Numbered from the stretch's first letter, positions 9,493-29,866 are shown. The stretch is 33,714 nt of DNA from Burkholderiales bacterium (GCA_031427395.1 JANPNJ010000342.1:1-33714); one strand, 5' to 3'. A program made the numbers and translations. Notes: generated from the letters alone by a model not told the origin.

Positions 9493-10071
9493 ATGCCAAA
9501 ACCATTGCCAGGCGAACGCCGCCGCGCCATATTGCAGGCGCTGGCCGAAATGCTTGAACAACCCAAGGGCGAAAAAATCACCACTGCCCTGCTCGCCAAA
9601 AAACTCGATGTGTCGGAAGCGGCGCTGTACCGGCACTTTGCCAGCAAGGCACAAATGTTTGAGGGGCTGATCGAATTCATTGAGGAGACGGTGTTTTCAC
9701 TGGTGAACAAAATCCAGCTTGATGAAACCGACGGCCTCAAACAAGTGGAGGCGACGGTGGCCATGTTGCTGAATTTCGCGCAAAAAAACATCGGCATGAC
9801 GCGCGTGCTGATCGGTGATGCGCTGGTCAATGAGGATGACCGCCTGCAGGCGCGCATGAACCAACTGCACGACCGCCTGGAAGCCTCCATCCGCCAAAGT
9901 GCCCGTCTGGCGGGCACTTCCGGGCAATTGCACGCCTCGCTCGACCCCAGCGCCTATGCCAACACGGTCATGTCGTTTATTGTCGGCCGCTGGCACCAGT
10001 TCGCCAAATCCGGCTTCAAGCGCACACCCACCGAAATGTGGAAGGCGCAGTGGGCGGTGTTTGCTGGATAA
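9493..10071 (+). CDS. slmA: Nucleoid occlusion factor SlmA (TetR family)
   Basis: 192 aa. ITTALLAKKLDVSEAALYRHFASKAQMFEGLIEFIEETVF and DDRLQARMNQLHDRLEASIRQ align closely with E. coli SlmA as recalled. AGGGAGA RBS at 9481-9487. Confidence 0.85.
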   Translation: MPKPLPGERRRAILQALAEMLEQPKGEKITTALLAKKLDVSEAALYRHFASKAQMFEGLIEFIEETVFSLVNKIQLDETDGLKQVEATVAMLLNFAQKNIGMTRVLIGDALVNEDDRLQARMNQLHDRLEASIRQSARLAGTSGQLHASLDPSAYANTVMSFIVGRWHQFAKSGFKRTPTEMWKAQWAVFAG

Positions 10072-10074
10072 AAA

Positions 10075-10404
10075 ATGATTGATCCCGTGGCAGCACAGCT
10101 TGAAGCCTACAACGCGCATGATGTCAAGGCATTCATGGCCAATTACACCGACGACTGCATTGTCGAGGACGGCGCGGGCAACCGGCAACTCACCGGTGCC
10201 ACCGAGATGCGCGCGCGTTATGAGGCGCTGTTTGCCGCCTCGCCAACATTGCATGCCGCCATCGTCAGCCGCATTCGCATCGGCGAATATGTGATCGACG
10301 AAGAAGCCATCACCGGGCGGGTGCCCGATTTGCGCCGCGCGGTGGCGGTGTATCACCTGCGCGGCGACAAGATCGACCATGTGCGGTTTTACCGGGAAGC
10401 CTGA
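10075..10404 (+). CDS. NTF2-like (SnoaL/steroid delta-isomerase-like) small protein
   Basis: 109 aa. Size and pattern (AYNAHDVKAFMANYTDDCIVED ... VAVYHLRGDKIDHVRFY) are typical of nuclear-transport-factor-2 fold proteins. Function unknown. Confidence 0.6.
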   Translation: MIDPVAAQLEAYNAHDVKAFMANYTDDCIVEDGAGNRQLTGATEMRARYEALFAASPTLHAAIVSRIRIGEYVIDEEAITGRVPDLRRAVAVYHLRGDKIDHVRFYREA

Positions 10405-10409
10405 CGCGC

Positions 10410-10997
10410 GTGGCGGCATTGTCCCTGCTGAAACTCGAATCCGAACGGCTGTGGCTGAGTTTGCCGCGACCGGAAATGGCGGCGGCGGCACACGCTTTTC
10501 ATGTGCGGGCGTGGCCGCATCTGGCGCGCTGGTTCCCGCCGGTGCCGCCTGATTTTGAGCAACTCTCCTATTGGCAGGAGGCGGTCGTCAAGGCAAGCGA
10601 CGCGTTTATCCAGGGCAGCGCCGTGCGTCTGTGGTTGTCGCCCAAATCCGCGCCGGATGAGGTGATCGGCACCATCGGTTTCTCGCAAATATTCCGCGGG
10701 CCGTTTTGCAATGCGGTGCTCGGCTACCAAATCGATCAGGCGCACGAGGGACAGGGCCTGATGCATGAAGCGCTGTGCGTGGCGATTGACCACATGTTCC
10801 GCGAGCAAAAATTGCACCGCATCAACGCCAACTATCGCCCCGAAAACGCCCGCAGCGGCCGCCTGCTGGCCAGACTCGGCTTTCATATTGACGGCTACGC
10901 GCAAAAATATTTGTATGTGGACGGCGACTGGCGCGACCATATCCAGACTTCGTTGATCAACGACAGATTTCGGTCGGAGTGGTTGACGGTTAAATGA
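10410..10997 (+). CDS. rimJ: Ribosomal-protein-S5-alanine N-acetyltransferase RimJ-like GNAT
   Basis: 195 aa, GTG start. Collinear with E. coli RimJ as recalled (LESERLWL..., GYQIDQAHEGQGLMHEAL, HRINANYRPENARSGRLLARLGFHIDGYAQKYLYVDGDWRDH). Confidence 0.8.
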   Translation: MAALSLLKLESERLWLSLPRPEMAAAAHAFHVRAWPHLARWFPPVPPDFEQLSYWQEAVVKASDAFIQGSAVRLWLSPKSAPDEVIGTIGFSQIFRGPFCNAVLGYQIDQAHEGQGLMHEALCVAIDHMFREQKLHRINANYRPENARSGRLLARLGFHIDGYAQKYLYVDGDWRDHIQTSLINDRFRSEWLTVK

Positions 10998-11041
10998 AAT
11001 GTTTCAGACATTCAACCCTCACTGACAATTTTCGCCCCCAG

Positions 11042-11479
11042 TCAGAGAAACACCGCCGCTGACACACCGAATCTGTTTGCCAGCGCCTTCGCCTGCCGTG
11101 CATTTATGGCGCGCTTGCCATTCAAAATCTCACTCACCACCCCTTGTGAACCGATCTCGGCTTTCAAGTCGGATTGTGTCAGGTCGTGTTGCTCCATGAG
11201 AAATTTGAGAACAGCTCCGGATTCCACGTCAGGCACAGGCATCGCCTGATGCTCGTACTGCTCAATCAGCGCCGCCACGACATCAAGCAACTTGGAAAGC
11301 GGATGACGCTCATTGCCGCCGATTTCATCCACCAATTTATCAGCAACAGCCACTAAATTCCTGTACTGTTTTTGATTTTGCACCGGTCCAAGACCAAGCC
11401 TGCCATGCAGGACATTCCACGCGTCGTATAAATCGTGGAATTCCCGTGGACGAGATGCAGTCACCGAACTAATATTCAT
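11042..11479 (-). CDS. higA: Type II antitoxin HigA (C-terminal XRE helix-turn-helix)
   Basis: C-terminal HTH LTQSDLKAEIGSQGVVSEILNGKRAINARQAKALANRFGVSAAVFL. ATG 11477-11479 overlaps the higB stop (ATGA). An upstream in-frame ATG at 11491 is the alternative start. Confidence 0.85.
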   Translation of the reverse strand: MNISSVTASRPREFHDLYDAWNVLHGRLGLGPVQNQKQYRNLVAVADKLVDEIGGNERHPLSKLLDVVAALIEQYEHQAMPVPDVESGAVLKFLMEQHDLTQSDLKAEIGSQGVVSEILNGKRAINARQAKALANRFGVSAAVFL

Positions 11480-11763
11480 TTTGGTTTCCATTTTCCCCGA
11501 TCATACTCGACGTGGGTAAGCACATGACGGATATAGAGTATTTGCGCACGAAACTTGATCGCTGCCACAAGCCGACAAGACCTGCCAATATTAAAGACAT
11601 ACAGCCCATCAACCAAATCAACCTGAACAAAAGTTTTTTTGACATCACCCGGGTTTTGAAATTTTGAAAGCTTGACAATTTTGTACCAAGTTGTCAGTGC
11701 TGAACAAGTTTCCGGGTGAATATTGCAGAATTCCTGAATTCGACTTCTTGTAATTACTCGCAT
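11476..11763 (-). CDS. higB: Type II toxin HigB (mRNA interferase family)
   Basis: 95 aa from ATG 11763 (AAGGAG 7 nt upstream). Sequence MRVITRSRIQEFCNIHPE...WYKIV...FQNPGDVKKTF...VFNIGRSCRLVAAIKFRAQILYIRHVLTHVEYD matches the HigB-toxin family pattern. Toxin-first order is typical of higBA. Confidence 0.88.
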   Translation of the reverse strand: MRVITRSRIQEFCNIHPETCSALTTWYKIVKLSKFQNPGDVKKTFVQVDLVDGLYVFNIGRSCRLVAAIKFRAQILYIRHVLTHVEYDRGKWKPK

Positions 11764-11851
11764 TGCAAAACTCCTTACCGGCATGCCCGAAGCGGCGGCG
11801 ACCCACCGCACGGCAAAAATTAAATGGGTTCATGTCATCTCTCCGATTTTT

Positions 11852-11879
11852 CTTGTCTGGGTTTGCTTGTCTGGGTTTG
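11852..11879. repeat. Perfect 14-bp tandem direct repeat (CTTGTCTGGGTTTG x2) in the higBA leader
   Basis: Read directly: 11852-11865 and 11866-11879 are identical. Lies between the predicted higBA promoter and the higB start. Confidence 0.9.
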
Positions 11880-11908
11880 CACAAAATCACCTAAGTCATA
11901 CAAGATGC

Positions 11909-11937
11909 ATATTATCTCATAATGAGATTATTGTCAA
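11909..11937 (-). promoter_or_regulatory. Predicted sigma70 promoter of higBA with palindromic operator in the spacer
   Basis: Minus strand reads TTGACA (11937-11932), a 17-nt spacer, then TAATAT (11914-11909). The spacer and -10 are covered by the imperfect 21-bp palindrome ATAATCTCAT-T-ATGAGATAAT (11911-11931, 10+1+10 with one mismatch per arm pair). The layout resembles autoregulated TA operators. Confidence 0.6.
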
Positions 11938-11965
11938 TCGATATTTCAAGTCATGCCGCCTCCCC

Positions 11966-11997
11966 AAAAAAAAAGCCGCTAACCACAGCGGCTTTTT
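11966..11997 (-). terminator. Rho-independent terminator downstream of fccB
   Basis: Minus strand has stem AGCCGCT/AGCGGCT (7 bp, outermost an A-T pair; 11975-11980 pairs with 11987-11992, plus the flanking A/T), loop GTGGTT, then a 9-T run (A9 at 11966-11974 on plus). Begins 23 nt after the fccB stop. Confidence 0.8.
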
Positions 11998-12019
11998 CCC
12001 TATTGGCAAACAACCAATT

Positions 12020-13294
12020 TCACCCCAGCGTATCCGCCCAGATATTTTTCGCCCACGACATGGCGTATTGCGCTTCCAATTCATTGGCGGCACTGGACAC
12101 TCCACCCGAACCAGGAACGGCGCGCATGGTTTTGTCTTTCTCGTCGTATTTGTGGATGGAGGCGACGTGCACCACTTTGTCGGCGGAAACAAACGAATAA
12201 CAGGTGTTGTTGAGGGTCGGGCTTGGATTGGGCTGCTCCCCCGCCAACATTGCCACCACCGCCGCGGCACAGGCTTTGCCGTGGTTGTTGGCCATATGCG
12301 CCGATTTGGGCATGGCCGGGGCAATCTGCAAGGCATCGCCGAGCAAATGCACACCAGGCACGTTCTTGGCTTCATAGGTCAGCCAATTCACTTCACACCA
12401 ACGCTTGTTGGCGGTGATGAATGGGCTGGCAATGTTGCCCGCTTTCATCGGCGGCAGGGCGTTGAGCACATCGGCCTTGACATCGCCGAATTCGAGCTTG
12501 GCGGTGGATGTTTTGGTGTCCACATCGATCAACTTTGACGCACCGCGGTATTCGACCATGCCGGGATACATGTCGGCCCAGGCTTTTTTGAACAAGCCGG
12601 GCTTGGAGGTGACATCCATGTTGGCGTCGAGGATCAGCACCTTGGATTTTGGCTTGGCTTTTTTGAAATAACTGGCGACCTGGCAGGCGCGCTCATACGG
12701 GCCAGGCGGGCAGCGATACGGCGCCTCGGGAATGGCAATGGCATACACACCGCCATCGGGCATGTCTTCGAGTTGTTTGCGCAGGGCCAGCGTTTGCGGG
12801 CCGGCTTTCCAGGCGTGCAGATAACGCGCCTGGGCATCGGCGTTGTTCAGCCCCGGCAGCGCCTCGTACATGAAATCAATGCCAGGCGAGAGGATCACCC
12901 GGTCAAACGCAAGCGCTTGCCCACCCGCCAGCCGCACCACTTTCTTTTCCATGTCCACCGCGGTGGCTTCGCCGCGAATGACTTTCACCCCATATTTTTT
13001 TTGCAGTGTGTCGTAGCTGACGGTGATGTCAGCCATGGTTTGTGTGCCGCCCAGCACCAGGTTTGAGATCGGACAGGATATAAACGAGGCGTTGCGTTCA
13101 ATGATGGTGACATCGACATTGGGGCTCCACAGCTTGATGTATTTGGCCGCTGTCGCGCCACCATAGCCGCCACCAACTATGACCACTTTGGGGCCGCCGC
13201 CGCCCACCGCCGCACAACCGGCGAATGTGGCCACACCACCTGCCGCCGCCATCACACCACTGGCCTGGAGAAATTTTCTGCGATTGATTGTCAT
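12020..13294 (-). CDS. fccB: Flavocytochrome c sulfide dehydrogenase, FAD-binding subunit (FccB/SoxF type)
   Basis: 424 aa with Tat signal (INRRKFLQASGVMAAAGG) and Rossmann motif VVIVGGGYGGATAAKY. FCSD-like features follow (FISCPISN, YRCPPGPYERA, HLLGDA). GGAGAA RBS overlaps the fccA stop. Confidence 0.8.
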   Translation of the reverse strand: MTINRRKFLQASGVMAAAGGVATFAGCAAVGGGGPKVVIVGGGYGGATAAKYIKLWSPNVDVTIIERNASFISCPISNLVLGGTQTMADITVSYDTLQKKYGVKVIRGEATAVDMEKKVVRLAGGQALAFDRVILSPGIDFMYEALPGLNNADAQARYLHAWKAGPQTLALRKQLEDMPDGGVYAIAIPEAPYRCPPGPYERACQVASYFKKAKPKSKVLILDANMDVTSKPGLFKKAWADMYPGMVEYRGASKLIDVDTKTSTAKLEFGDVKADVLNALPPMKAGNIASPFITANKRWCEVNWLTYEAKNVPGVHLLGDALQIAPAMPKSAHMANNHGKACAAAVVAMLAGEQPNPSPTLNNTCYSFVSADKVVHVASIHKYDEKDKTMRAVPGSGGVSSAANELEAQYAMSWAKNIWADTLG

Positions 13295-13833: not shown

Positions 13834-16101
13834 TCAACTCTCCTGCACCAGCGGCACTTTTTCCTCACTGATGTCGAGCCTGACTTTATCGTCCACCCCA
13901 ATATCAATGGTTACCTTGCCGCCACCCGCAAGACGGCCGAACAGCAACTCGTCGGCCAGCGCGCGGCGGATGGTGTCCTGGATCAGGCGCGCCATCGGAC
14001 GGGCACCCATTTGCACATCAAAGCCGTTTTTGGCGAGATATTTCTTGAGCGCTTCGGTAAAGGTGACCTCGACCTTCTTCTCCGACAACTGCGCTTCAAG
14101 CTGCATCAGGAATTTGTCCACCACCCGCAAAATGACCTCCTCATTCAGCGGCGCGAACGAAATCATCGCGTCCAGGCGGTTGCGGAATTCAGGCGTGAAC
14201 AGGCGCTTGATCTCGGCCATTTCATCGCCGGCTTTATTGTCATGGGTAAAGCCGATTGAGATTTTTGACAATTCCGCCGCGCCGGCGTTGGTGGTCATGA
14301 TGACGACCACGTTGCGGAAATCCGCCTTGCGGCCGTTGGTGTCGGTGAGCGTGCCATGATCCAGCACCTGCAGCAGCACGTTGAAAATGTCCGGGTGCGC
14401 CTTTTCGATTTCATCGAGCAGCAACACCGAATAAGGTTGCTTGGTGATCGCCTCGGTCAGGAGCCCGCCCTGGTCATAGCCCACATAACCGGGCGGCGCG
14501 CCGATCAGGCGCGACACCGCATGGCGCTCCATGTATTCGGACATGTCAAAGCGCAGCAGCTCGACCCCGAGCACAAACGCCAGTTGTTTGGCGACCTCGG
14601 TCTTGCCCACACCGGTGGGGCCGGAAAACAGGAACGAACCGATGGGCTTGGTGGTGCTGCCCAGGCCGGAGCGCGCCATTTTGATCGCGGAGGCCAGCGC
14701 GTCGATGGCCTTGTCCTGGCCAAACACCACCGATTTCAAATCGCGGTCGAGTGTTTTCAGCGCGCTGCGGTCATTGGAGGACACATTGCGCGCCGGAATG
14801 CGGGCAATCTTGGCAATGATTTCCTCGATCTCGGTCTTGCCAATGGTTTTTTTCTGTTTCGATTTGGGTGCGATACGCTGTGCGGCACCCGCCTCGTCGA
14901 TGACATCAATTGCCTTGTCGGGCAAGTGGCGGTCGTTGATGTATTTGGCGGACAGCTCCGCCGCCGTGGTCAGCGCGGTGGAAGTGTATTTCACGCCGTG
15001 GTGCGACTCAAAACGTGACTTCAGCCCCTTGAGGATTTCGATGGTCTCGGTGATCGAAGGCTCGTTGACATCGATTTTCTGGAAGCGGCGCGACAGGGCA
15101 TGGTCTTTTTCAAACACCCCGCGATACTCCAGATAGGTGGTCGCGCCGATGCATTTCAATTTCCCCGATGACAACGCCGGCTTCAACAAATTGGAGGCGT
15201 CCAGGGTGCCGCCGGATGCCGAGCCGGCACCAATCAGCGTGTGGATTTCGTCAATGAACAACACCGCATTGGGATTGTCGGTGAGTTGCTTCAGCACCGC
15301 TTTCAGGCGTTGCTCAAAATCGCCGCGATACTTGGTGCCGGCCAGCAACGCACCCATGTCGAGTGAATAAACCTGCGACTTTTCCAGGATTTCCGGCACC
15401 TGGCCATCCACAATGCGTTTGGCCAGGCCTTCGGCAATCGCCGTCTTGCCCACCCCTGCCTCGCCCACCAACAGCGGATTGTTCTTGCGGCGGCGGCACA
15501 GAATCTGGATCACCCGCTCGACTTCGAGTTCGCGGCCGATCAAGGGGTCAATCTTGCCGTCAATGGCGCTCTGGTTGAGGTTTTGGGTAAATTGCTCGAG
15601 TGCACCACCGGCTTCGGCGCCTTCGGCAGCCTCCCCTTCGGCTTCCGCTTTTTCGGGGTGTTGCGGTGCCGCCTTGGAAATGCCGTGGGAAATGAAATTC
15701 ACCACATCCAGCCGCGACACCCCCTGCTGGTGCAGGTAATACACCGCATGTGAATCCTTTTCGCCATAAATCGCCACCATGACATTGGCACCCATCACTT
15801 CTTTTTTGCCGGCCGACTGGACATGCAAGATTGCACGCTGGATCACCCGCTGGAAACCCAGCGTAGGCTGGGTATTCACCTCACCCGTGCCGGCCACAAT
15901 CGGCGTGTGCTGCTCGATGAATTCGGCAAGGTTTTTTCTCAGGTCATCGACTTTCGCCGAACAAGCCTTGAGCACCTCCTGTGCCGACGGGTTGTCGAGC
16001 AATGCCAACAACAGGTGCTCTACGGTGATGAACTCGTGGCGTTTGTGCCGGGCTTCGACAAACGCGGTATGCAGGCTCAGTTCGAGTTCATGGGCAATCA
16101 T
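13834..16101 (-). CDS. clpA: ATP-dependent Clp protease ATP-binding subunit ClpA
   Basis: 755 aa with a Clp N-domain ([35 protein letters not shown]). Two AAA+ modules are present ([13 protein letters not shown] ... LFIDEIH; [13 protein letters not shown] ... [10 protein letters not shown]). Preceded by clpS. Confidence 0.97.
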
Positions 16102-16229
16102 GTTGATCCTTTGCTTGGTTCATAGGCTGTGATGCGTTGCCGGAAATTTCTGCTTGACACCCGGCGGGTCCGGCCTTGCCCGCACAGTCATCACATTGGG
16201 GCAATCCAGCAATTATCATGCCCAATACA

Positions 16230-16562
16230 CTACACCTCTTCCATACTGCAACGCAGGGGATGCTCATGTTTTCTTGCCAAATCCATGACCTGCTCGACTT
16301 TCATGGCCGCCACGTCGCGGGGGAAAATCCCGCAAGTGCCGCGCCCTTCTGTATGCACCTGAAGCATTATTTGCGTTGCGCGTTCCTGGCTATGGCCGAA
16401 AATGCGGGTCAAAATATCGACTACAAACTCCATAGGCGTGTAATCGTCGTTATACATCAGCACCTGCCACATCGCCGGAGGCTTGGTTTTGGCGGGTTTT
16501 TCCTGCAACGCCGTGCCACCTTTGGCGGGGTTGGTATTGCCGTTTTGGGACTGGTTTGCCAT
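16230..16562 (-). CDS. clpS: ATP-dependent Clp protease adaptor ClpS
   Basis: 110 aa. Conserved core [48 protein letters not shown]. Upstream of clpA. Confidence 0.93.
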
Positions 16563-16720
16563 TTCAGGGTTCAGGTTAAAAACAGGTTGTCAGACGGAAA
16601 TTCCGTTTGCCAATAATATGGACAAGTGCCTCCACATTTCAACCCCGCTCCGGGAAACAGGCAAAATAAGGTCAAATTTGCAAATTCACCACGCTTTGTT
16701 GTGAAAAAGCCGGTAAAATG

Positions 16721-16749
16721 TTGACTAAGTTCACTTTAGTAAGTACAAA
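16721..16749 (+). promoter_or_regulatory. Candidate promoter for the cold-shock gene (would give a ~110-nt 5' UTR)
   Basis: TTGACT (16721-16726), a 17-nt spacer, then TACAAA (16744-16749), in the AT-richer 303-bp clpS/csp divergent region. Long 5' UTRs are typical of cspA-type genes. Weak -10, so low confidence. Confidence 0.3.
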
Positions 16750-16865
16750 GTGGACTTGGAGTTTAGCTTTAAGGTTTTCTGCATTTGCATCTGCGGTTGC
16801 GGGCCTTGAAAAGCGAAATATTTCCGGGGCTCTCCAACCCGTCTTTTCATTAAGGATGCATTTGT

Positions 16866-17069
16866 ATGGCAACAGGTACAGTTAAATGGTTCAACGACGC
16901 CAAAGGTTATGGCTTCATTACACCCGATGATGGCAGCGAAGATCTTTTCGCGCATTTCTCGGCAATCCAAATGAATGGCTTCAAGACCCTCAAAGAAGGT
17001 CAAAAAGTCGCATTTGAAGTGACACAAGGCCCTAAGGGCAAACAAGCATCAAATATCAACAACGGATAA
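16866..17069 (+). CDS. cspA: Cold-shock protein, CspA family
   Basis: 67 aa: [34 protein letters not shown], containing the RNP1 (KGYGFI) and RNP2 (LFAHF) motifs. Confidence 0.95.
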
Positions 17070-17092
17070 GTTTTTCCGTTCTTGTGTCCACC

Positions 17093-17130
17093 AAAAACCC
17101 CCTCAGTGAACCTGCGGGGGTTTTTGTTTT
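17093..17130 (+). terminator. Rho-independent terminator after the cold-shock gene
   Basis: AAAAACCCCC (17093-17102), a 13-nt loop, then GGGGGTTTTT (17116-17125) continuing GTTTT. Confidence 0.8.
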
Positions 17131-17166
17131 GGTGCCCGCTTGCTCCGTGACCGCCGGATTCGGCCC

Positions 17167-17721
17167 ATGCTGATTGCCTTCAACAAGCCCTATGGCGTGA
17201 TCAGCCAATTCAGCCCGTCAGGAAACAAGCCCACCCTCAAAGATTTCATCTCGCACCCCGACGTTTATCCGGCTGGCAGGCTGGATACCGACAGCGAGGG
17301 CCTGATGTTGCTGACCGACGATGGCATCCTGCAGGCGCGCATCACCAGTCCACGCCAACAATTGGCCAAGACCTACTGGGCAGAAGTGGAAGGCATTGCC
17401 ACCGATGCCGCGATGGCGTTGCTGCTGACACCACTGGATCTTGGCGACTTTGTTTCCGCTCCGGCTCTTGGTGCAAGCCTCATCGCGCCGCCTGATCTCT
17501 GGCCACGGACACCGCCGGTGCGTTATCGCGCCGCCATACCGACCACATGGATTGAAATCACCATCACCGAAGGCAAGAATCGGCAAATTCGCCGCATGAC
17601 GGCAATGGTGGGTTTTCCCACATTGCGCCTGGTGAGGGTTGCCATTGGCCGCATTGTCTTGCACTCTGCCGCGCTGTCACCGGGGAAATCGATGGTGGTT
17701 TTGCCGGAAAATCTGTTCTGA
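17167..17721 (+). CDS. rluE: 23S rRNA pseudouridine synthase RluE (RsuA/RluE family)
   Basis: ATG 17167 preferred to track TTG 17140. Matches include MLIAFNKPYGVISQF, catalytic AGRLDTDSEGLMLLTDDG, KTYWAEVEG and GKNRQIRRMTAMVGFPTLRLVRVAIG, collinear with E. coli RluE as recalled. Confidence 0.88.
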   Translation: MLIAFNKPYGVISQFSPSGNKPTLKDFISHPDVYPAGRLDTDSEGLMLLTDDGILQARITSPRQQLAKTYWAEVEGIATDAAMALLLTPLDLGDFVSAPALGASLIAPPDLWPRTPPVRYRAAIPTTWIEITITEGKNRQIRRMTAMVGFPTLRLVRVAIGRIVLHSAALSPGKSMVVLPENLF

Positions 17722-17931
17722 TGCGGGAATTTAGCCCCTCTTTACGCTAAAAACCGTGCAAAAAGAACAACTTAAACCGAAAATCGCAATTAATTAGTTC
17801 CATTTTCTTGTCAACCAGCTAAAATACCCGGCGTTAATTCCCGTGACAGGCAAAAGGATCACTGCCTTCAAAGCCAGTTCCAAGCTGCTGTCGTTAACGT
17901 TTACCACACTCACTCACCATTAGGAAACACA

Positions 17932-18267
17932 ATGAAAAAATTGTCCGCTATTGTTGCTGGTCTTTTCGCCGCTGCCGCATTGAATGCCGCCGCCCAAGCT
18001 CCTGCTGCCGCTCCAGCAAAAGCCGCTGAACCTGCCAAAGCTGCTGCACCTGCCGCTGCCGCACCTGCCAAAGCTGCCGCGCCTGCCGCTGCTGCAGCTG
18101 CACCTGCCAAAGCAGATGTGAAAAAAGAAGAAAAGAAAGCTGAAAAGAAAGCCAAAAAAGACGAAGCCAAAAAAGACGCGCCTAAGAAAGATGCACCAAA
18201 GAAAGACGCGCCTAAGAAAGACGAAGCTAAAAAAGACGACGCAAAAAAAGACGCGCCTAAGAAGTAA
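17932..18267 (+). CDS. Secreted low-complexity Ala/Pro/Lys-rich protein (hypothetical)
   Basis: 111 aa. Signal peptide [24 protein letters not shown], then (P)AKAAxPA-type repeats, then a [10 protein letters not shown] repeat tail. RBS AGGAAA lies upstream and a strong terminator downstream, which argues for a real gene. Confidence 0.65.
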
Positions 18268-21832: not shown

Positions 21833-24370
21833 ATGTTCAACAAGATTTTCAAAAGCAATGAGGCAGAGCCGGTGACGGCACAGGCCACCGCCGCTGACCC
21901 TTCCGACCAAACCGACTGGCTCGCCAAGCTACACGCCGCAGGCGGCGATGAGCAGGCGTTGCTGGCCATTGCCATGGACCGGGACAACGCCCCGCTCAAA
22001 ATCCGCCAGGCTGCGGTTGAGGCCATGCAATCCGAGGATGCCTTGAAAGCGGCGGAACGCGAATTTCGGGACCATGACCGCCGCATCCACCGCGAAGCCA
22101 AACTGCGCCTCGAAACTGTGGTCGCGCGGCGACTGGCCAGGGCCTTGGCCGACCAATTGATTGCCGATGCCCATGCCCTGTTTGCGCAAGCACACATTCC
22201 CGCCAATCGTTTTGTCGAAATTGACCGTGGCTGGCAGGCGCTGGACGCCGCCTTGCTGGACTCGGCGCAAATTGCCGGATTTGACACGGTCAGCACACAA
22301 ATTGCCCAGGTTTTGCGCTCGCGCGGCGATCAGCAATCGTTGATCAAACGCTGGACACACGAGGCTGACCTCGCCCTGGCCGAATTGCAGGCGGGCTCGA
22401 TTGCCGTGGCCGAAACCGGTCTGGAGCGGGACAAGCTCGCCGCCGCCTATGACGCCGTCAACCTGGCGCGGGAAAATGCGCCTCTGATGACTGACCAGGA
22501 TGCCAGGTCGCGCGACATCAATCACAAAATCATGCTGCTGGATGCCGCGCTGCAACTGGCGAGGGCGCTTGACGCCCGTCTGACCCACATCGACAAATTG
22601 GCTGCCGACGCCACCAACGCCAACGATGACCCGGCAGCCTGGCATGGCCTGCCGCCGGTCGCCGACACCAAAATCGCCGGCCTGCTCAGCGCACGCCACG
22701 ACGCCATTCGCCGCACCCGGCAACAGTCACGCGATGTCATGTCGCGCGCGGCAAAAGAAGCGGTGGACGAAAAAGACAAGGCCCGGCGGCAGGCCAAGCT
22801 GGCCACCCTGAATGAATTGCTGACGGGTGCCGAATCGGCCCTTGCAACAGGACAAGTGGTCGATGCCGCCGCCGCCCTCACCACCATCGAAGCCACACTC
22901 AAAGGTGCGCACGCCAACCCAAAATTGCTTGGTCGCGTGGATGCGCTGCGTGCCGAAATCACCCGCCTCAAAGGCTGGCAGCACTGGGGTGGCGGTCGCG
23001 CGCGTGAAGATTTGGCGGCGGAAGCCGAGACACTGGCCAAAGCCATCACCGACGAAAAACTGCATATCAAATCCCACGCCGATGCCATCGAAAAACTGCG
23101 CGAACGCTGGAAGGAACTCGACAAACTCGGCGGTGCCACCAGCCGTGATTTATGGGGAAAATTTGACGGTGCGCTGAAGACGGCGTATTTGCCGGTGTCC
23201 GCGCAACTGGCCAAACTCAAGGCAGTGCGCCAGGAAAACCTGGCGGCACGCAATCAATTGATCACCGCCCTGGACGCTGTCAGCGTGACCGCGGACGCGG
23301 CATCCACCGCCGCCACGCTGCGGGATTGGGCGCGCGCGCTGGAACACTTCCAGACCGAGTGGCGCAAACTGGGGCCGGTTGAACACACGGTTCCGCACAA
23401 GGCGCAGGCGGCCTTGCTGGAGCGCATGAAAGCAGCCATGGCGAGGCTGGAATCCCCGCTCAACGACAGCCGCCGTGTCGAGGCGCTCAAGCGCGAACAA
23501 CTGATTGCCCGCGCCAAGGCATTAAGCACCGACAGCCAGCAACGCGACACCATCATCAAAGTGCGGGAATTGCAAACCGAGTGGCAACAACACGCCAAGG
23601 CATTGCCGTTGCAGCGCAATGTCGAGAATCGGCTGTGGGCCGAATTCAAAGCCGCCACCGATGCCATATTCCACGCGCGTGATGCCGCAAACTCGGCCAG
23701 GGACGCGGTGTTTCAGACCAATGCCACATTGCGCACCGAGCTGATCAACAAGCTCACCGCCCTCACCGCCGACACCCCGCCCGGCGAAATCAAACGCACC
23801 ATTGCCGAGGTCGATAGCGCCTGGCGGCGCGCGGGCGAAGCACCGCGTGCACTGGAAGCCAAGCTGGAAGCGCGGTTCCGCCGTGCGCGTGATGATGCCC
23901 AACAATTTTCAGCGGGCAGCGCCAAACGCACTTGGCAAAAAACCTGCGAGAGTTTGCATGCCAAGCTGGCACTTTGTGTCGAGCTTGAAAACAACACAGG
24001 CAACGTCGGCAACACCCGCGAAAGTTGGCAGGCGCTGCCCGCCCTCGCTGACATCTGGGAAAAACCCCTGCACACCCGCTTTGATGCCGCCCTTGTCGGC
24101 CAGCCCGTCTCCGTGCCGCAAGACGAAACGTTGTTGAAACTCGAGGCCGCGCTGGATATGGAGTCACCGCCCGCTTTCCAGGCGGCGCGCCGTGAAATGA
24201 AATTGCGCGCGATGAAAAATGCCATCGAGGCGCGTCAGGCCGTGACTGTCACCAACGCCGACATTGAAAAATGGATCGCGGTGGTCATTGCCGCGCCACT
24301 GGGTGATGCCGTGGCGGCGGCACGTCTGCAAAATATTTTGGCGGCGCTGCCTGGCAAGCCTCTGCGTTGA
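21833..24370 (+). CDS. DUF349 domain-containing protein
   Basis: 845 aa, helical and Ala/Arg/Glu-rich. Repeated DUF349-type modules are present (LRERWKELDKLGG...LWGKFDGALK; HFQTEWRKLGPVEH; VRELQTEWQQHAKALP...LWAEFKAATDAIF; VDSAWRRAGEAPR...LEARFRRARD). Confidence 0.75.
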   Translation: MFNKIFKSNEAEPVTAQATAADPSDQTDWLAKLHAAGGDEQALLAIAMDRDNAPLKIRQAAVEAMQSEDALKAAEREFRDHDRRIHREAKLRLETVVARRLARALADQLIADAHALFAQAHIPANRFVEIDRGWQALDAALLDSAQIAGFDTVSTQIAQVLRSRGDQQSLIKRWTHEADLALAELQAGSIAVAETGLERDKLAAAYDAVNLARENAPLMTDQDARSRDINHKIMLLDAALQLARALDARLTHIDKLAADATNANDDPAAWHGLPPVADTKIAGLLSARHDAIRRTRQQSRDVMSRAAKEAVDEKDKARRQAKLATLNELLTGAESALATGQVVDAAAALTTIEATLKGAHANPKLLGRVDALRAEITRLKGWQHWGGGRAREDLAAEAETLAKAITDEKLHIKSHADAIEKLRERWKELDKLGGATSRDLWGKFDGALKTAYLPVSAQLAKLKAVRQENLAARNQLITALDAVSVTADAASTAATLRDWARALEHFQTEWRKLGPVEHTVPHKAQAALLERMKAAMARLESPLNDSRRVEALKREQLIARAKALSTDSQQRDTIIKVRELQTEWQQHAKALPLQRNVENRLWAEFKAATDAIFHARDAANSARDAVFQTNATLRTELINKLTALTADTPPGEIKRTIAEVDSAWRRAGEAPRALEAKLEARFRRARDDAQQFSAGSAKRTWQKTCESLHAKLALCVELENNTGNVGNTRESWQALPALADIWEKPLHTRFDAALVGQPVSVPQDETLLKLEAALDMESPPAFQAARREMKLRAMKNAIEARQAVTVTNADIEKWIAVVIAAPLGDAVAAARLQNILAALPGKPLR

Positions 24371-24378
24371 TTCGCGGA

Positions 24379-25323
24379 ATGAAATTCAGCCTGTCCATCG
24401 CCGCCCTGCTGTGTGTGTTCGGCAGTGCGCCCGCGCCACAAGCGTGGGCACAAACAGCAGAGTCCGCCGCGACAGCCACACTTCCCCAACCCTACAAAAT
24501 CGAACGTTTCAGCCGTCCCGGCCCCATGGTGGGTGTGGTTGCCGCCATCAATCTGGCGCACCCGCAGGTGAAAATAAAAGTGGCGCTCGCCGACGATGTG
24601 GATCCGGACGGTGATGGCCCGTGTGTCGGGCAGCTCGACACCCCCAGCAATACCGCCCGCAAAAATGAATTCGCAATCACGCTCAATGCCAGTTTTTTTG
24701 CCGCACCCCATGTCAAACAAATGGATGGGCAGAAAGTGCGTTATTACGTTGGCAATTGCACCATGCCGGTTGGCTGGCATGTCGCGTCCGGCAAAACACT
24801 GGCCACCCCCGCCAATGAAAAACTGCGCGCCACCATGTTGGTGATGGAAGACGGCAGTGTGGCGCTCAAGGCTGATGTGCAGGTGTTGCCGCCGAAAACA
24901 AAATATGCCGTCAGTGGCAATGTCATGGCGCTGCTGAATGGCGACATCGTCGCCCGGGACAAGAACGGGGTGCGTCATCCGCGCAGCGCGGTCGGCATCA
25001 GCGCCAACGGAAAAACCCTCTACCTGGTTGCCGTGGACGGCCGACAGGAAAAGCACAGTATTGGCGCCAACATGTTCGAGCTGGGGGAGTTGATGAAACA
25101 AATCGGCGCGCATGACGCCATCAACCTCGACGGCGGTGGCAGCACGGCGATGGTGGTCAAAGACGTGCGCACCGGCACCTACGCCCTCGCCAATCAGCCA
25201 TCAGAGTTGTCCACCGACGGCTTTGCGGTTCGCATGGAGCGTCCCGTTGCCGATGTCATCGGCATCATTCTGGAAACAGCGGAAAATTCCAAGCGGCCAG
25301 TCAATAGTAATACCCAAAAATAA
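24379..25323 (+). CDS. Exported phosphodiester glycosidase family protein (DUF2233/NAGPA-like)
   Basis: ATG 24379, 8 nt after the DUF349 stop. Signal peptide MKFSLSIAALLCVFGSAPAPQAWA/Q. Family motifs RSAVGISANGKTLYLVAVDGR and HDAINLDGGGSTAMV. Confidence 0.7.
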   Translation: MKFSLSIAALLCVFGSAPAPQAWAQTAESAATATLPQPYKIERFSRPGPMVGVVAAINLAHPQVKIKVALADDVDPDGDGPCVGQLDTPSNTARKNEFAITLNASFFAAPHVKQMDGQKVRYYVGNCTMPVGWHVASGKTLATPANEKLRATMLVMEDGSVALKADVQVLPPKTKYAVSGNVMALLNGDIVARDKNGVRHPRSAVGISANGKTLYLVAVDGRQEKHSIGANMFELGELMKQIGAHDAINLDGGGSTAMVVKDVRTGTYALANQPSELSTDGFAVRMERPVADVIGIILETAENSKRPVNSNTQK

Positions 25324-27679
25324 TGCCCATTTCATCATTGCTGGTCAGCCCGAAATTGACCATGTTGCCAGTGGTGTTGTTATAAGTGATTTCGGATGTC
25401 AGCCCTTCGCCCGCCTGCAACACCAGCGGCGGATCAAAAGTGGCCATGGCCGGGTGTGCCCACTCGGTGTTTTCATAGACAATCTGGCCGTGGCGCGCCC
25501 CGCCATTGATGCGTATGACAAAACGCTCGCCGAGTTGGTGGGTGTGCGAGGTCAACATCAAAATGCGCGTGGTGGCCGCGAAGGTGAACGACCTGGAATG
25601 GGTGGTGCGCTGGCGCGGTGGCAGGGGGATATTGGTGTTGGCCAGATTGAGCGTGCGGGCGACTTGTGTTACCTGCGCGGCATCAACCGTGTGCAGATTG
25701 GCATAGGCTTCGCCGGAAAGGTCGCTGGTGCCGTTGTTGACGTAATGCAAATTGAGATCCAGCCTCGCGTTGGCGGGCAATGGCAGCGCCACACCGGGAG
25801 GAAAGGCAAAGCCACCCTCTGGCGTCATCGACCCTGCAAAAAATGTGTGGTATCCCATTGGCAGCATATTCAAGAAATTCAGGCTGTTGTCGGCATTGCG
25901 AATATCCCGCACCAGATTTGGCGGGGGAATAACTGCCGACGGGATATTGTTTTGAAAAGTGTAAAGCAGGAAGTGGTGGCTGTTGGCGCGCATCCGGGTT
26001 TCGATGCGCGAGATGTAAATCGGCGCGGTGTTGCCCAATTCACGCATCACAAAAAACTCGCGCTCGAAATTAGGCCGCACCAGAAACGGCTCAACAACCA
26101 ATTGTATGCCGCGTGCCGGCGGTGCCAGCGCGACAAACGGCGCGTAGGCCGGCAGGGTTTTGTCGTCAAGCAGTGCCGCGTCGATGTTGTCACCCGTCTC
26201 AGGCGCGCCGGATTCGATCCAGCGTTTGATGTATTCAAGCTGTCCCACGCTGAGCGAGGTGGCACCCATCGGCATCGGGCTGCCGAAATGTTGCGGCCGG
26301 GACGGATCCCACAACAATAATTTCTGGTAGAGCAGACTGTTTTGCACATCGCGCGGCACCACCTGCTTCATGCCACGCGCGCCCGCCTCCGCCAGTTTCA
26401 CCGGGGCGTTGAACAAATTGCGATAGGACACCGCCGCATCCAGCACCAATGCGGATTGAACAGCATAGGGATGCCCGGCGCTGTGGCAACTGTTGCATGC
26501 CGGTGTCAGGATTTTTTCCTGGATGCGGGAAAAACTGGTCGCCGCCTGCACGGTGGCCACCACAGGCGTCACGCCGTGGAACACCGCGCCATTGTTGGTG
26601 CCCGCCGGTGCGCGGCCGACATCGTTGAATATGGTGGGGCTTGCCTGGTTGCGGTTCAACTGCCACAAATCCAACGTGCCATCACTGCGCAGCCAGAGCA
26701 CATCAAAAACGCCGTCGCCGTTGAAGTCGCCGGTGGCATAGAGTTGGCTCGCCGCATCACTGGCAGGCAGATTGACCAGAGCATTGGCAATCGCCCCCGT
26801 GGTGGCGGTGCAGGAGGCGTTCACATTGTCGGGGTCACCGATGAAATTTGGCAAATTGATCCCGGCCGCGTTCAGTGACATCAGCGCCATTTGTCCGGTG
26901 GCGGGATTGCGCAATAAAATGTCGCCGCGGCCGTTGCCGGTGAAATCCGCGAACGCATGCGCAAGAAAACCAGCGGGCACACTGCCCGCAGAATAATTGG
27001 CACAGGTGCGGTTTGGGGTGGCCATCAGCACCCTGATGCTGTTGTCGGGACTGACATACACCATGTCGGCGGCGCCATCGCCATTCAAATCCATCGCACC
27101 GAGCAATCTCCAGTCGAGCGGCGCACCGCCGCGCTTGCGCACCATGGGCGGTCCGCTGGCATTGGTGAACCAAATATAGGACACACCGGTGTCAGGCGAA
27201 TTGGCCACCACATACCGCCACACCAGGTCACCGCGGCCGTCGCCGTCGAGATCACCCACCGCCTGCACATCCCATACCTGCCGCACCTGCCGGAAGGTGC
27301 GCTCGTTGGTCGGCAGAAAATCGTGCCAGCCTTTGACATCTCCCAGGTCGCCTTGCGTGATGTTTTGGAAAGCCAGATCGGATTTGCCGTTGCCGTCAAA
27401 ATCCGTTACCCCCACCAGGCGAAAGTTGGCGCCAGGATCGATTTGTGACGTGAACACAAACCGGCCATTGACCAGCCGCCCCGCCTGCAATTGCGGCGCG
27501 GCCGCATTGGCCTGGGTGCGCACCAGCACCACACTTTTGTTGTTGCCGTCGATGTCAATGCCGCCGCGCTTGGACAAGGGCACGGCGGTTTGTGCCACGG
27601 CCATCGTGCCTGCCGCCACCAGGACGAATGTGATGGCGGTAGTCAACAACCTATGCAAAATCAGTCTGGCCTGCCGCAT
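25301..27679 (-). CDS. Exported multidomain protein: FG-GAP/VCBS repeats + PSCyt-like CXXCH heme-c module + PHM/DBH-type copper monooxygenase-like domain
   Basis: 792 aa from ATG 27679 (AGGA 8 nt upstream), with signal peptide ...AAGTMAVA/QT. Five DxDGDG-type repeats are present. CNSCH lies at 26483-26497. Copper-ligand motifs are SHHFLLY, LNLHY, SHTHQLG and NDEMGIIFGYYY. See findings. Confidence 0.8.
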   Translation of the reverse strand: MRQARLILHRLLTTAITFVLVAAGTMAVAQTAVPLSKRGGIDIDGNNKSVVLVRTQANAAAPQLQAGRLVNGRFVFTSQIDPGANFRLVGVTDFDGNGKSDLAFQNITQGDLGDVKGWHDFLPTNERTFRQVRQVWDVQAVGDLDGDGRGDLVWRYVVANSPDTGVSYIWFTNASGPPMVRKRGGAPLDWRLLGAMDLNGDGAADMVYVSPDNSIRVLMATPNRTCANYSAGSVPAGFLAHAFADFTGNGRGDILLRNPATGQMALMSLNAAGINLPNFIGDPDNVNASCTATTGAIANALVNLPASDAASQLYATGDFNGDGVFDVLWLRSDGTLDLWQLNRNQASPTIFNDVGRAPAGTNNGAVFHGVTPVVATVQAATSFSRIQEKILTPACNSCHSAGHPYAVQSALVLDAAVSYRNLFNAPVKLAEAGARGMKQVVPRDVQNSLLYQKLLLWDPSRPQHFGSPMPMGATSLSVGQLEYIKRWIESGAPETGDNIDAALLDDKTLPAYAPFVALAPPARGIQLVVEPFLVRPNFEREFFVMRELGNTAPIYISRIETRMRANSHHFLLYTFQNNIPSAVIPPPNLVRDIRNADNSLNFLNMLPMGYHTFFAGSMTPEGGFAFPPGVALPLPANARLDLNLHYVNNGTSDLSGEAYANLHTVDAAQVTQVARTLNLANTNIPLPPRQRTTHSRSFTFAATTRILMLTSHTHQLGERFVIRINGGARHGQIVYENTEWAHPAMATFDPPLVLQAGEGLTSEITYNNTTGNMVNFGLTSNDEMGIIFGYYY

Positions 27680-27714
27680 GAAATTTCCTTTCAAGACACA
27701 ACGTACAGCGTCAT

Positions 27715-28227
27715 TCAAGCCTGCAATTCTATCGCGTACAACGCAAGTTCATCCGGGTCATCACCCAACCGGATTTTGCGCGCAAACTTCATGCCGATTT
27801 TTTCCAGCAGCGCGACGGACGGCAGGTTGTCCGGCAGCGTGATCGCCACCATGCGGTTTTTGTTGAGCACATCGCGGCCATATTGCAGTGTGGCGCGCGC
27901 GGCCTCCAGCGCATAACCCTGCCCGCGGTACGCGGGCAAAAACGCGAAGCCAATATCCACATCATCGAGTGTGTCGCGCTTGATGATGCCGCACATGCCC
28001 ATCGGTGTGCCGTCCTTGCGTGTCGCCAGATACAGGCCGAAGCCGTGTTTCGCGTATTGGGGGATATAGGCTTTGTCCATGTAGGCAACCGCATCATCCA
28101 GCGAATGCACGTTGCGGTCGCCGATATTGCGGATCCAGTCGGGGTCAGTGAGCAGTGCCAGAAAAAACGCGGCATCATCGGGCGTGACTTCGCGCAGCAC
28201 CAAGCGTTTCGTTTCGATTTTAATCAA
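27715..28227 (-). CDS. GNAT family N-acetyltransferase (RimJ/RimL-like)
   Basis: Contains IKIETKRLVLREVTPDD ... GFAFLPAYRGQGYALEAARATLQYG ... LLEKIGMKF. Start placed at TTG 28225-28227 (GGAG 6 nt upstream). GTG 28239 and ATG 28266/28269 are alternatives. Track start 28563 is antisense to the deacylase gene. Confidence 0.75.
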   Translation of the reverse strand: MIKIETKRLVLREVTPDDAAFFLALLTDPDWIRNIGDRNVHSLDDAVAYMDKAYIPQYAKHGFGLYLATRKDGTPMGMCGIIKRDTLDDVDIGFAFLPAYRGQGYALEAARATLQYGRDVLNKNRMVAITLPDNLPSVALLEKIGMKFARKIRLGDDPDELALYAIELQA

Positions 28228-28267
28228 CGTAAACTCCACATATCGCCGCCCACAGGAAACCGCCATC

Positions 28268-29866
28268 ATGCGCCGGTTTGCCGCCATTTTATTGTTAGCC
28301 GCCGTCGCCGGTTGCGCCGGTGTTGACCACAGCGGCAGCGCCGATGTGCTGGTCACCAATGGCCGCATCGTGGACGGCACCGGCAACAACTGGTTTCGCG
28401 GCGATGTGGCCATCAAAAACGGCAGGATCACACACATCGGCAAACTCGCCGCCATGCCCGCGCGGCGTGTCATTGACGCCCAGGACAAAATCGTCGCGCC
28501 AGGTTTTATTGATGTCCACGGCCATATCGAATTCGGCCTGTTTGAGCGCACCACCGCGGACAACTACATCCACAATGGTGTCACCACCGTTATCACCGGC
28601 AATTGCGGCGGCTCCGCCGACAGCCTGAAGGATTTTTTTGCGCGCATCGACCGCGAGCGCACCTCCATCAATATCGCCTCGCTCGTCGGCCACAACACCG
28701 TGCGCCGCCAGGTGATGGGGCTCAACAACCGCGAGGCCACGGCAGAGGACCTGCAAAAAATGCAGGCGCGGGTGGATGAGGCCATGCGTGACGGCGCGGT
28801 GGGATTGTCCACCGGGCTGATTTACCTGCCGGGTGTGTACAGCAGCACGGCGGAGGTGGTGGCACTGGCCAAGACCGCGGCGGCGCACCACGGCGTGTAT
28901 GCCTCGCACATCCGCAACGAAGGCAGCAAAGTGGTCGTGGCCATCAACGAGGCGCTGGACATTGGCCGCGCCGCCAACATGCCGGTGCAGATTTCCCATT
29001 TCAAGGTCAGCGCCCCAGCCAACTGGGGGCGCGCCAACGAAACACTGGCGATGATCCAACAAGCAAGGCGCGATGGCCTGGATGTCACCATTGACCAATA
29101 TCCCTACACCGCCAGCAGCACCCAACTGGCGGTGTTGCTGCCGGATTGGGCGCGCGAGGGCGGCGACGAGGCCACCAAGGCGCGTTTGCTGGACCCCGCC
29201 GTGCGGCCAAAAATCGCCGCTGAAATTTTGGCCAGTGCGCGCGCCTCCAAGCGCCCCGACTTTGCCTTTGCGGTGGTGGCGAGGCACGCCGCCAATGCCG
29301 CGCACAACGGCATGAGCATCGCCGCCATCAACCAACAATCAAAACGTGCCGACAGCATGGAAGCCCAGATCGAAACCATCATGGATATTTTGGTTGCCGG
29401 TGGCGCGCAGATGGTGTTTCACGGCATGCACGAGAATGATGTAAAGGTATTCATGGCCTACCCGTTCAACATGGTCGGCACCGACGGCGGGGTGCAAAGC
29501 GGGCGCGGCATGCCGCACCCACGGAGCTATGGCACCCATGCCCGCGTCCTTGCCAAGTATGTGCGCGAGGAGAAAATTGTCACGCTCGAAGACGCCATCC
29601 GCCGCATGACCTCGCTCGCCGCGCAAAAATTCAGGCTCACCAATCGCGGCCTGCTGCGCGTGGGATATGCCGCCGATTTGGTGATATTTGACGAAAAAAC
29701 CGTGACCGACCGCGCCACCTATGAAAACCCGCACCAGTTTTCGGCGGGTTTCGACACTGTTCTGGTCAATGGCGTGGTCACACTCGACAGTGGCCGACAC
29801 AACGGCGGCAAGGCTGGCGTTGCCCTGCGTGGCCCGCGCGGCAGTGCGCGATCAAACACAGAATAA
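28268..29866 (+). CDS. N-acyl-D-amino-acid deacylase family amidohydrolase, predicted lipoprotein
   Basis: Track ORF trimmed to ATG 28268. Lipoprotein signal MRRFAAILLLAAVAG/C. D-aminoacylase pattern follows: VLVTNGRIVDGTGNNWFRGDVAIKNGRITHIG...VIDAQDKIVAPGFIDVHGH, ASHIRNEG, HFKV, GTDGG. Confidence 0.8.
   Translation: MRRFAAILLLAAVAGCAGVDHSGSADVLVTNGRIVDGTGNNWFRGDVAIKNGRITHIGKLAAMPARRVIDAQDKIVAPGFIDVHGHIEFGLFERTTADNYIHNGVTTVITGNCGGSADSLKDFFARIDRERTSINIASLVGHNTVRRQVMGLNNREATAEDLQKMQARVDEAMRDGAVGLSTGLIYLPGVYSSTAEVVALAKTAAAHHGVYASHIRNEGSKVVVAINEALDIGRAANMPVQISHFKVSAPANWGRANETLAMIQQARRDGLDVTIDQYPYTASSTQLAVLLPDWAREGGDEATKARLLDPAVRPKIAAEILASARASKRPDFAFAVVARHAANAAHNGMSIAAINQQSKRADSMEAQIETIMDILVAGGAQMVFHGMHENDVKVFMAYPFNMVGTDGGVQSGRGMPHPRSYGTHARVLAKYVREEKIVTLEDAIRRMTSLAAQKFRLTNRGLLRVGYAADLVIFDEKTVTDRATYENPHQFSAGFDTVLVNGVVTLDSGRHNGGKAGVALRGPRGSARSNTE

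Follow-up and report, generated by a model that had tools for sequence, protein, structure and literature searches.

Peptidylglycine alpha-hydroxylating monooxygenase (PHM), dopamine beta-hydroxylase (DBH) and their relatives are textbook eukaryotic enzymes that depend on ascorbate, and electron transfer across the gap of about 11 Å between their two coppers, CuH and CuM, is still debated. In eukaryotes, heme-assisted electron supply to copper monooxygenases is represented by cytochrome b561 together with the DOMON domain of DBH, and by the cytochrome domain of cellobiose dehydrogenase, which feeds lytic polysaccharide monooxygenases (LPMOs). A gene related to PHM and DBH was identified on the minus strand, at positions 25301-27679, of a 33,714-nucleotide (nt) stretch of DNA from Burkholderiales bacterium (GCA_031427395.1 JANPNJ010000342.1:1-33714), hereafter the window, to which all positions refer. 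On balance we favor the view, taken jointly with the mechanism proposed below, that its product (the target protein) is an exported protein, periplasmic or of the cell envelope, composed of three modules: a beta-propeller, then a c-type heme domain, then a PHM/DBH-type domain with two coppers.

The sequence-only reading of the window had assigned 25301-27679 to a minus-strand product of 792 amino acids (aa). The enclosing minus-strand open reading frame (ORF) is present at 25301-27718, the ATG at 27679 gives the 792-aa product, and all the motifs listed in that reading were recovered where it had placed them. Residues are numbered here on the 792-aa product; the 805-aa numbering of the sequence-only reading is higher by 13 throughout. 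The features of the gene are as follows.

25301-27679, minus strand: coding sequence of the propeller, heme c and PHM-like protein; 792 codons plus a stop codon at 25301-25303
27686-27689, minus strand: ribosome-binding site AGGA, 6 nt 5' of the ATG, read from the sequence
27593-27679, minus strand: predicted Sec-type signal peptide, residues 1-29, with predicted cleavage AVA/QT, read by eye
26570-27592, minus strand: predicted Ca-loop (FG-GAP/VCBS-type) beta-propeller, residues 30-370, from Pfam and an AlphaFold2 (AF2) model
27539-27556, minus strand: sixth, more degenerate Ca-loop repeat DIDGNN, residues 42-47, from the sequence and the strand pattern of the model
26165-26542, minus strand: predicted heme c domain, residues ~380-505, a putative divergent relative of PSCyt1, from family-level PSCyt1 matches; helical in the model
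26483-26497, minus strand: CNSCH heme c attachment motif (C395, C398, H399), from the sequence
26264-26275, minus strand: MPMG motif, residues 469-472, with M469 as candidate distal heme ligand, from sequence and conservation
25655-26164, minus strand: copper domain 1, equivalent to the PHM N-domain, residues ~506-675, with CuH-type ligands H568, H569 and H645, from Foldseek and hhalign
25961-25981, minus strand: SHHFLLY, residues 567-573, from the sequence
25742-25756, minus strand: LNLHY, residues 642-646, from the sequence
25304-25654, minus strand: copper domain 2 (Cu2_monoox_C), residues 676-792, with CuM-type ligands H712, H714 and M784, from PF03712, hhalign and the DBH alignment
25529-25549, minus strand: SHTHQLG, residues 711-717, from the sequence
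25325-25339, minus strand: NDEMG, residues 781-785, from the sequence

Predicted copper domains and their proposed ligands

The C-terminal ~270 residues had been proposed to reproduce each metal-ligand motif of PHM and DBH, and both the fold and the individual ligands agreed with this proposal. Residues 375-792 were modelled with AF2 from an alignment of 39 sequences, and the model reached a pLDDT of 86.5 and a pTM of 0.75, with a dip of confidence at the MPMG loop that is expected because the heme pocket was modelled without heme. When this model was compared with the Protein Data Bank (PDB) by Foldseek, human DBH (4zel) was the first match (E 7e-14), followed by about 30 entries of rat PHM (E 2e-12 to 7e-9, TM to target 0.57-0.64, with TM 0.63 at E 2e-12), the alignments with PHM covering 287-302 of ~305 columns and both PHM domains at an identity of ~15%. 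Matches below PHM were unrelated double jelly-rolls with E>=6e-6.

The correspondence of ligands was examined by hhalign between a profile of 51 family sequences and rat PHM, for which a core sequence was used after it had been confirmed to be 100% identical to PDB 4e4z_A and identical to residues 45-356 of chain 5wm0_A. The two aligned at 94.9% (E 4.5e-8) over 254 columns across both domains, and all six ligands were set on their PHM counterparts, H568/H569 on H107/H108 and H645 on H172 at CuH, and H712/H714 on H242/H244 and M784 on M314 at CuM. The family profile searched against PDB sequences also placed DBH first, weakly (E 0.12), with the HxH and Met aligned. Nothing useful was obtained by a single-sequence search of the PDB with the target protein, and a search with a DBH fragment returned exon-sized C-domain fragments only, with no full-length DBH or PHM. 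The Pfam scan, in which the whole protein was used and its segments were also scanned singly at E<=10, detected the outer modules. Cu2_monoox_C (PF03712) scored 26.2 bits on the whole protein against a gathering score of 23, and 31.5 bits (E 1.4e-7) on the isolated domain. In the NCBIfam scan there was no model for the heme-copper module, and the propeller match was sub-threshold (PA5033 family, 25.8 bits against a cut-off of 100).

Two sets of relatives were used to examine conservation, a close set of 39 with 51-75% identity and a distant set of 51 representatives with 27-49% identity, 46 of which carry the heme domain. Cu2_monoox_C was detected in 38 of the 39 close and 36 of the 51 distant relatives. 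All of C398, H399, M469-P470, H568, H569, H645, H712, H714 and M784 are invariant in the close set, and C395 is present in 38/39. H568, H569, H645 and H714 are each retained in 51/51 of the distant set, H712 in 50/51 and M784 in 47/51 (His in three, Val in one). The proposed Cys, His and Met ligands are thus near-invariant among distant relatives, and every motif is retained in all the complete full-length orthologue clusters. Since FG-GAP and Cu2_monoox_C were matched in Pfam and the whole set of ligands is conserved among homologues, the set of motifs is not a product of chance. H611, which is invariant in the close relatives, was considered as an extra ligand and rejected, since it is found in only 8/51 of the wider family.

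As judged from these alignments and the model, the C-terminal module is a predicted two-domain fold of the PHM/DBH type with equivalent ligands, for which a non-coupled binuclear copper center is proposed. Compared with PHM (1PHM, 1OPM, 4E4Z) and DBH (4ZEL), it has in common the two-domain beta-sandwich, the His-His...His set of CuH and the His-x-His...Met set of CuM, the DEM motif at the Met and, around the third His, the HY after it and an Asn or Gln two residues ahead of it. It is different from them in being bacterial and exported, and in carrying a heme c domain ahead of the copper domains, presumably in place of soluble ascorbate. PHM has several disulfides, whereas the heme-copper module of the target has no Cys outside the CxxCH.

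The predicted heme c domain and its link to the copper domains

The CNSCH site noted in the sequence-only reading was confirmed at residues 395-399, and the heme Cys-Cys-His motif, either CxxCH or CX4CH, is present in 45 of the 46 heme-bearing distant relatives, together with M469-P470 in 44/46. Since M469 is the sole conserved candidate for the sixth ligand of the heme domain, we infer His/Met ligation, and the proposed heme ligands are C395, C398 and H399 with M469. In many distant relatives (for instance P0225, P0250, P0253 and P0263), C-x-x-x-x-C-H such as CATSGCH replaces CxxCH, an uncommon spacing for a heme motif.

The suggested kinship with the PSCyt1 module held at the level of the family and failed for the target protein itself. 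PF07635 matched 10 of the 51 distant relatives (best E 1.2e-9) and, weakly, 15 of the 39 close relatives (best 0.0048); the heme domains of other distant members matched CTI or generic cytochrome c models. By profile search of the PDB, the nearest structure was the C-terminal heme domain of hydrazine synthase alpha (5C2V_A, residues 641-766), a weak match with E 0.32. The target domain shares with PSCyt1 and hydrazine synthase alpha the CxxCH, the pattern V-P-G-x-x-x-x-S-L-L, the M-P and the W-I-x-x-G-A near the domain end, whereas its PSCyt1 score is below the reporting threshold and the match to hydrazine synthase alpha is not significant. The heme domain is thus best described as a putative divergent relative of PSCyt1 at family level. 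PSCyt1 is typically fused to PSD/DUF1553-type domains and not to a copper monooxygenase.

The coupling of heme and copper modules is seen at the level of genes. The heme domain is missing from five of the 51 distant representatives, of which three are on contigs long enough to inspect, P0262 (L088), P0281 (L089 and L090) and P0289 (L092), and in these three independent cases the next gene upstream, 22-145 nt away and in the same orientation, encodes a small cytochrome c. The split-gene loci are as follows.

L088, 3-2813
L089, 4421-6575
L090, 1145-2600
L092, 628-2409

The upstream cytochrome c has a lipoprotein-type leader in L089/L090 and L092, while in L088 the gene is truncated by the end of the contig. 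These split cytochromes carry the CxxCH or CX4CH, V-P-x-x-x-x-S-F, M-P-x-G and W-I-x-x-G-A-P motifs, and all three stop right at the D..LL linker from which the copper domain of the fused proteins starts. By BLASTP, two of them matched the heme domain of the target with 40% identity (E 4e-33) and 32% identity (E 1e-18). The order in the split operon is the lipoprotein cytochrome c, a heme-less PHM-like lipoprotein of ~315 aa, and then a protein of ~196 aa, which in L088 and L089 resembles an outer-membrane barrel (sub-threshold OMP_b-brl matches) and in L088 is followed by an MbnP-family gene (PF20243, E 1.6e-12). This pattern of fusion and fission indicates independently that heme and copper modules act as partners, and the split-gene variants, as read from their sequences, lend independent support to a role of the cytochrome c as dedicated electron donor.

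Export, propeller and neighboring genes

A Sec signal peptide had been claimed for the target protein, and inspection by eye agreed: the N-terminus has n-, h- and c-regions, with basic R2, R5 and R10, a 19-residue hydrophobic stretch LLTTAITFVLVAAGTMAVA and AVA/Q, and its orthologues likewise begin with hydrophobic leaders. Five Ca-loop repeats had been listed for the segment that follows; all five are present, and the correct count is six, as D42-I-D-G-N-N47 had been missed. The six repeats of DxDGxG type start at residues 42, 93, 143, 197, 245 and 318, and they fit the AF2 model of residues 30-375 (pLDDT 88.4, pTM 0.88), which is all-beta with ~24 strands. Pfam detected FG-GAP_3 (1e-16, 4 stretches) and FG-GAP (7e-12).

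The closest structure in the PDB, by far, was UmbA4 from the umbrella toxin of Streptomyces (9oee_A; E 1.5e-11, TMq 0.72), followed by CRTAC1, integrin alpha and Photorhabdus propeller lectins. The UmbA4 propeller has six blades with Ca-loops and acts as a lectin for teichuronic acid on the cell surface (PMC13274773), in agreement with the six Ca-loop repeats of the target. Repeated Ca-loop blades are common to both, whereas the identity is only 17%, and in the lineage of the target the propeller occupies the N-terminus of fusions with many different catalytic domains. Relatives of the propeller at 55-73% identity (P0035-P0120; Burkholderiales/Betaproteobacteria) carry many unrelated C-terminal domains, including DUF1800, cyclophilin peptidyl-prolyl isomerase, S8 and trypsin-like peptidases, amidase_3, and chitodextrinase-like and parallel beta-helix domains, and most members of the heme-copper family are devoid of this propeller. 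The proposal that it is the substrate-binding module of this particular enzyme was therefore modified. As the same module is fused to so many unrelated exoenzymes, it is more likely to be a general lectin-type targeting or anchoring module for a set of exoproteins than a substrate pocket. For two of these propeller proteins, P0042 and P0095, the longest contig listed is one and the same, of 1.73 Mb, pointing to several copies of the propeller per genome. The Cys pair C226/C290 is invariant among propeller relatives, consistent with a disulfide formed in an oxidizing compartment.

Homologues of the target protein fall into two tiers. The search with the whole protein gave about 18 clusters of the same architecture with 58-98% identity, which, where the source is named, come from metagenome-assembled genomes (MAGs) of Rhodocyclaceae, Burkholderiales or Pseudomonadota. 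The search with residues 375-792 gave more than 700 proteins, and these C-terminal 418 residues are, on the evidence of the alignments, one conserved module. Its commonest form is a protein of ~445 aa, mainly of Gemmatimonadota, with a lipoprotein-type leader and the heme-copper module only, and other N-terminal additions are an unannotated stretch of ~270 aa, DUF5648 repeats and DUF4214. When 1.84 billion cluster representatives (50%-identity clusters) were searched exhaustively with a profile, 413 matched at E<=1e-30 and 3179 at E<=1e-10, the latter of which may take in proteins matching one domain only. In a scan of one genome per species, the module was present in at least 578 species, and the minimal form is found in cultured Spirosoma, Larkinella, Fibrella, Nibrella and Rudanella. 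Members of the family are annotated as "hypothetical protein" or "T9SS type A sorting domain-containing protein", T9SS being the type IX secretion system.

Lipoprotein forms of the module are found in Gemmatimonadota and Cytophagales. In the distant set, a T9SS sorting domain (Por_Secre_tail) is located at the end of 19 of the 51 members and dockerin repeats are present in seven, and Ig or PKD domains are also found. Based on these leaders and domains, the family is predicted to be extracytoplasmic throughout, and Bacteroidota appear to send a heme c protein of this family to the cell surface. The extracytoplasmic location predicted for the target protein follows from its signal peptide, the c-type heme motif, the invariant Cys pair of the propeller, and the lipoprotein, T9SS and dockerin forms of its relatives.

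Other genes of the window include the following.

27715-28250, minus strand: GNAT acetyltransferase gene, from Pfam, start approximate; ends 35 nt 5' of the target ATG
24367-25323, plus strand: convergent gene of the NAGPA family (phosphodiester glycosidase), the 3' ends of this and the target gene overlapping by 23 nt at 25301-25323
28112-29866, plus strand: divergent ORF of Amidohydro_3 type (D-aminoacylase-like)
12020-13294, minus strand: gene for a flavocytochrome c sulfide dehydrogenase flavoprotein with a twin-arginine translocation (TAT) signal

No terminator-like site was found in the 35-nt gap between the GNAT and target genes, which are possibly co-transcribed. The order amidohydrolase, GNAT, target and DUF349 is retained in a Burkholderiales MAG with a 72% identical protein, and the GNAT-target order is present in L001/L002; the NAGPA gene is missing from the syntenic Burkholderiales locus L001. 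Within the Amidohydro_3 ORF, an internal Met is followed by a lipoprotein-type leader MRRFAAILLLAAVAGCAG, so that its true start is probably at this Met and the product is probably exported. A divergent amidohydrolase is also found beside the module in one genome of Gemmatimonadota (L003); the arrangement is not general, and the adjacent amidohydrolase was rejected as a partner of the target protein because it accompanies the module only in the lineage of the window and at this one Gemmatimonadota locus.

Gene context was examined on five individual contigs and by all-against-all clustering of ORFs from 80 genome loci. With a spurious antisense ORF that overlaps the target in 38 loci set aside, the target was the sole gene cluster shared beyond one family, and the recurrent neighbors, found in 14-23 loci, are housekeeping genes that share synteny within Spirosomataceae. 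In 15 genomes of Spirosomataceae (L038-L086), a conserved ORF of ~215 aa is located on the same strand ~10-140 nt upstream of the module gene; it is SAM-methyltransferase-like by eye and was not found outside Spirosomataceae in the clustered loci. Gene context thus gives no clue to the substrate.

The G+C content of the window dips to 0.51-0.53 at 10000-13000 and 15000-18000, against 0.58-0.62 elsewhere, and the flavocytochrome c sulfide dehydrogenase flavoprotein gene is included in the low-G+C stretch 10000-13000. The tRNA and Rfam scans of the whole window gave no match.

Proposed electron path and its alternatives

Provided that copper and heme are bound at the sites described above, the following mechanism is proposed. 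The propeller, as a six-repeat lectin type, would probably tether the enzyme to a glycan or envelope polymer. A periplasmic electron carrier would reduce the heme, and the heme, standing in for ascorbate, would pass two single electrons to CuH (H568/H569/H645), which would hand them to CuM (H712/H714/M784). CuM would activate O2, and an extracytoplasmic substrate other than peptidyl-glycine would be hydroxylated at a C-H bond. A donor different from ascorbate is argued for by the cytochrome c that is fused or adjacent. The logic would be the same as in the pairing of cytochrome b561 with the DOMON domain of DBH and in that of cellobiose dehydrogenase with LPMO, in which a heme domain feeds single electrons to an extracytoplasmic copper oxygenase of mononuclear or non-coupled type, although those systems use b-type heme and unrelated folds and their partners are separate proteins or otherwise arranged. 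We consider it fairly probable that the target protein is such a periplasmic or envelope-tethered copper monooxygenase, with a His/Met heme c replacing ascorbate and CuM hydroxylating a substrate other than peptidyl-glycine.

Several observations weigh against this assignment. Cu2_monooxygen (PF01082), the family of the PHM N-domain, gave no match for residues 507-669 at E<=10, and it is missing from the lists of the 25 families that were matched most often in the 39 and in the 51 relatives, so that the homology of copper domain 1 to the PHM N-domain rests on Foldseek and hhalign. Likewise, PSCyt1 (PF07635) gave no match for the target protein, even with the heme segment alone at E<=10. The columns of PHM R240, N316 and Y318, which we take from the 1OPM literature to be the residues that bind the carboxylate of peptidyl-glycine, hold T710, I786 and F788 in the target; as these binders are not conserved, the target protein is, by its sequence, an apparent PHM-type enzyme and not an orthologue of PHM. 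In P0291, P0296 and P0309, the CuM Met is replaced by His (..EH.. for ..EM..), and H-[FY]-H-S-R-G stands in place of H-x-H-x-x-G, so that these three may represent a subfamily with an all-His second copper site and the chemistry may vary within the family. The surface forms secreted by T9SS have no evident source of electrons for the heme, and no gene neighbor conserved across phyla was found among the contigs and the 80 loci.

Some of these observations would also suit a protein in which the same cofactors serve another chemistry, that of an oxidase, a dehydrogenase or a small-molecule redox enzyme, acting on O2, H2O2, NO or superoxide or oxidizing a substrate at copper, with electrons that could run from copper through heme to the respiratory chain. 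The absence of the PHM substrate-binding residues and the three members with His for the CuM Met both agree with it, and a His/Met cytochrome c serves equally as acceptor or donor. Its remaining support, the proximity of the heme domain to that of hydrazine synthase alpha, which works in the chemistry of small nitrogen compounds, comes from a weak match (E 0.32) that is not significant; moreover, the complete His3 and His2Met set of the O2-activating PHM/DBH enzymes is retained at 27-49% identity, and we know of no member of the PHM/DBH fold that is a dehydrogenase. We regard this explanation as unlikely.

More doubtful still is a function in copper handling, in which the module would bind Cu(II) or reduce it to Cu(I) in the periplasm for acquisition or delivery, with the heme as reductase. 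MbnP is a periplasmic copper-binding protein, and the split locus L088 continues with the barrel-like gene and an MbnP-family gene, but MbnP was found at this one locus and is missing from the other contexts examined. A profile match to the YcnJ copper-binding domain (E 1.1) is at chance level, and two distinct, strictly conserved sites, one of them with Met, on a catalytic fold suit an enzyme better than a chaperone. The lectin-like propeller, and the surface-protein modules of relatives (Ig, PKD, dockerin and T9SS), would admit a non-catalytic adhesin or lectin that uses the PHM-like sandwich as a binding scaffold and carries a decorative heme domain; the PHM/PNGase F fold occurs in binding modules too. 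Across the family, however, there is essentially no variation in the six metal ligands, in the heme motif or in the Met-Pro motif, which is not expected of a scaffold, and we consider this very improbable.

For the copper monooxygenase with its own heme c, the fold, the copper ligands and the type of heme domain are of kinds already known. As far as the databases and the open-access literature go, the new elements are a dedicated c-type heme partner for a PHM/DBH-type center, the bacterial extracytoplasmic setting and the size of the family, and the novelty lies in the large heme-copper core family rather than in this particular three-part fusion. Nothing relevant on a bacterial enzyme combining heme c with a PHM-type domain was found in open-access papers, an absence that is not proof. 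More tentatively than for the target protein itself, we suggest that the heme c plus PHM-like module may define a large unrecognized bacterial class of ascorbate-independent, cytochrome-c-driven copper monooxygenases, periplasmic or on the cell surface, with a class of substrates unrelated to peptidyl-glycine and phenethylamines, which, to judge from the lectin, dockerin and T9SS partners, could be polymers of the envelope or the extracellular space.

If this is true, copper chemistry of the PHM/DBH type would be used outside eukaryotes and without ascorbate. The built-in heme would provide a spectroscopic handle on the long-debated transfer of electrons from CuH to CuM, in a system that could probably be expressed in bacteria and in which the entry of electrons could be followed, or triggered, optically via the heme. 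Because the minimal form is present in the cultured genera named above, the hypothesis is directly testable. For the bacteria themselves, the finding would point to an extracytoplasmic hydroxylation not yet known, in soil and freshwater organisms of the Gemmatimonadota, Cytophagales and Burkholderiales.

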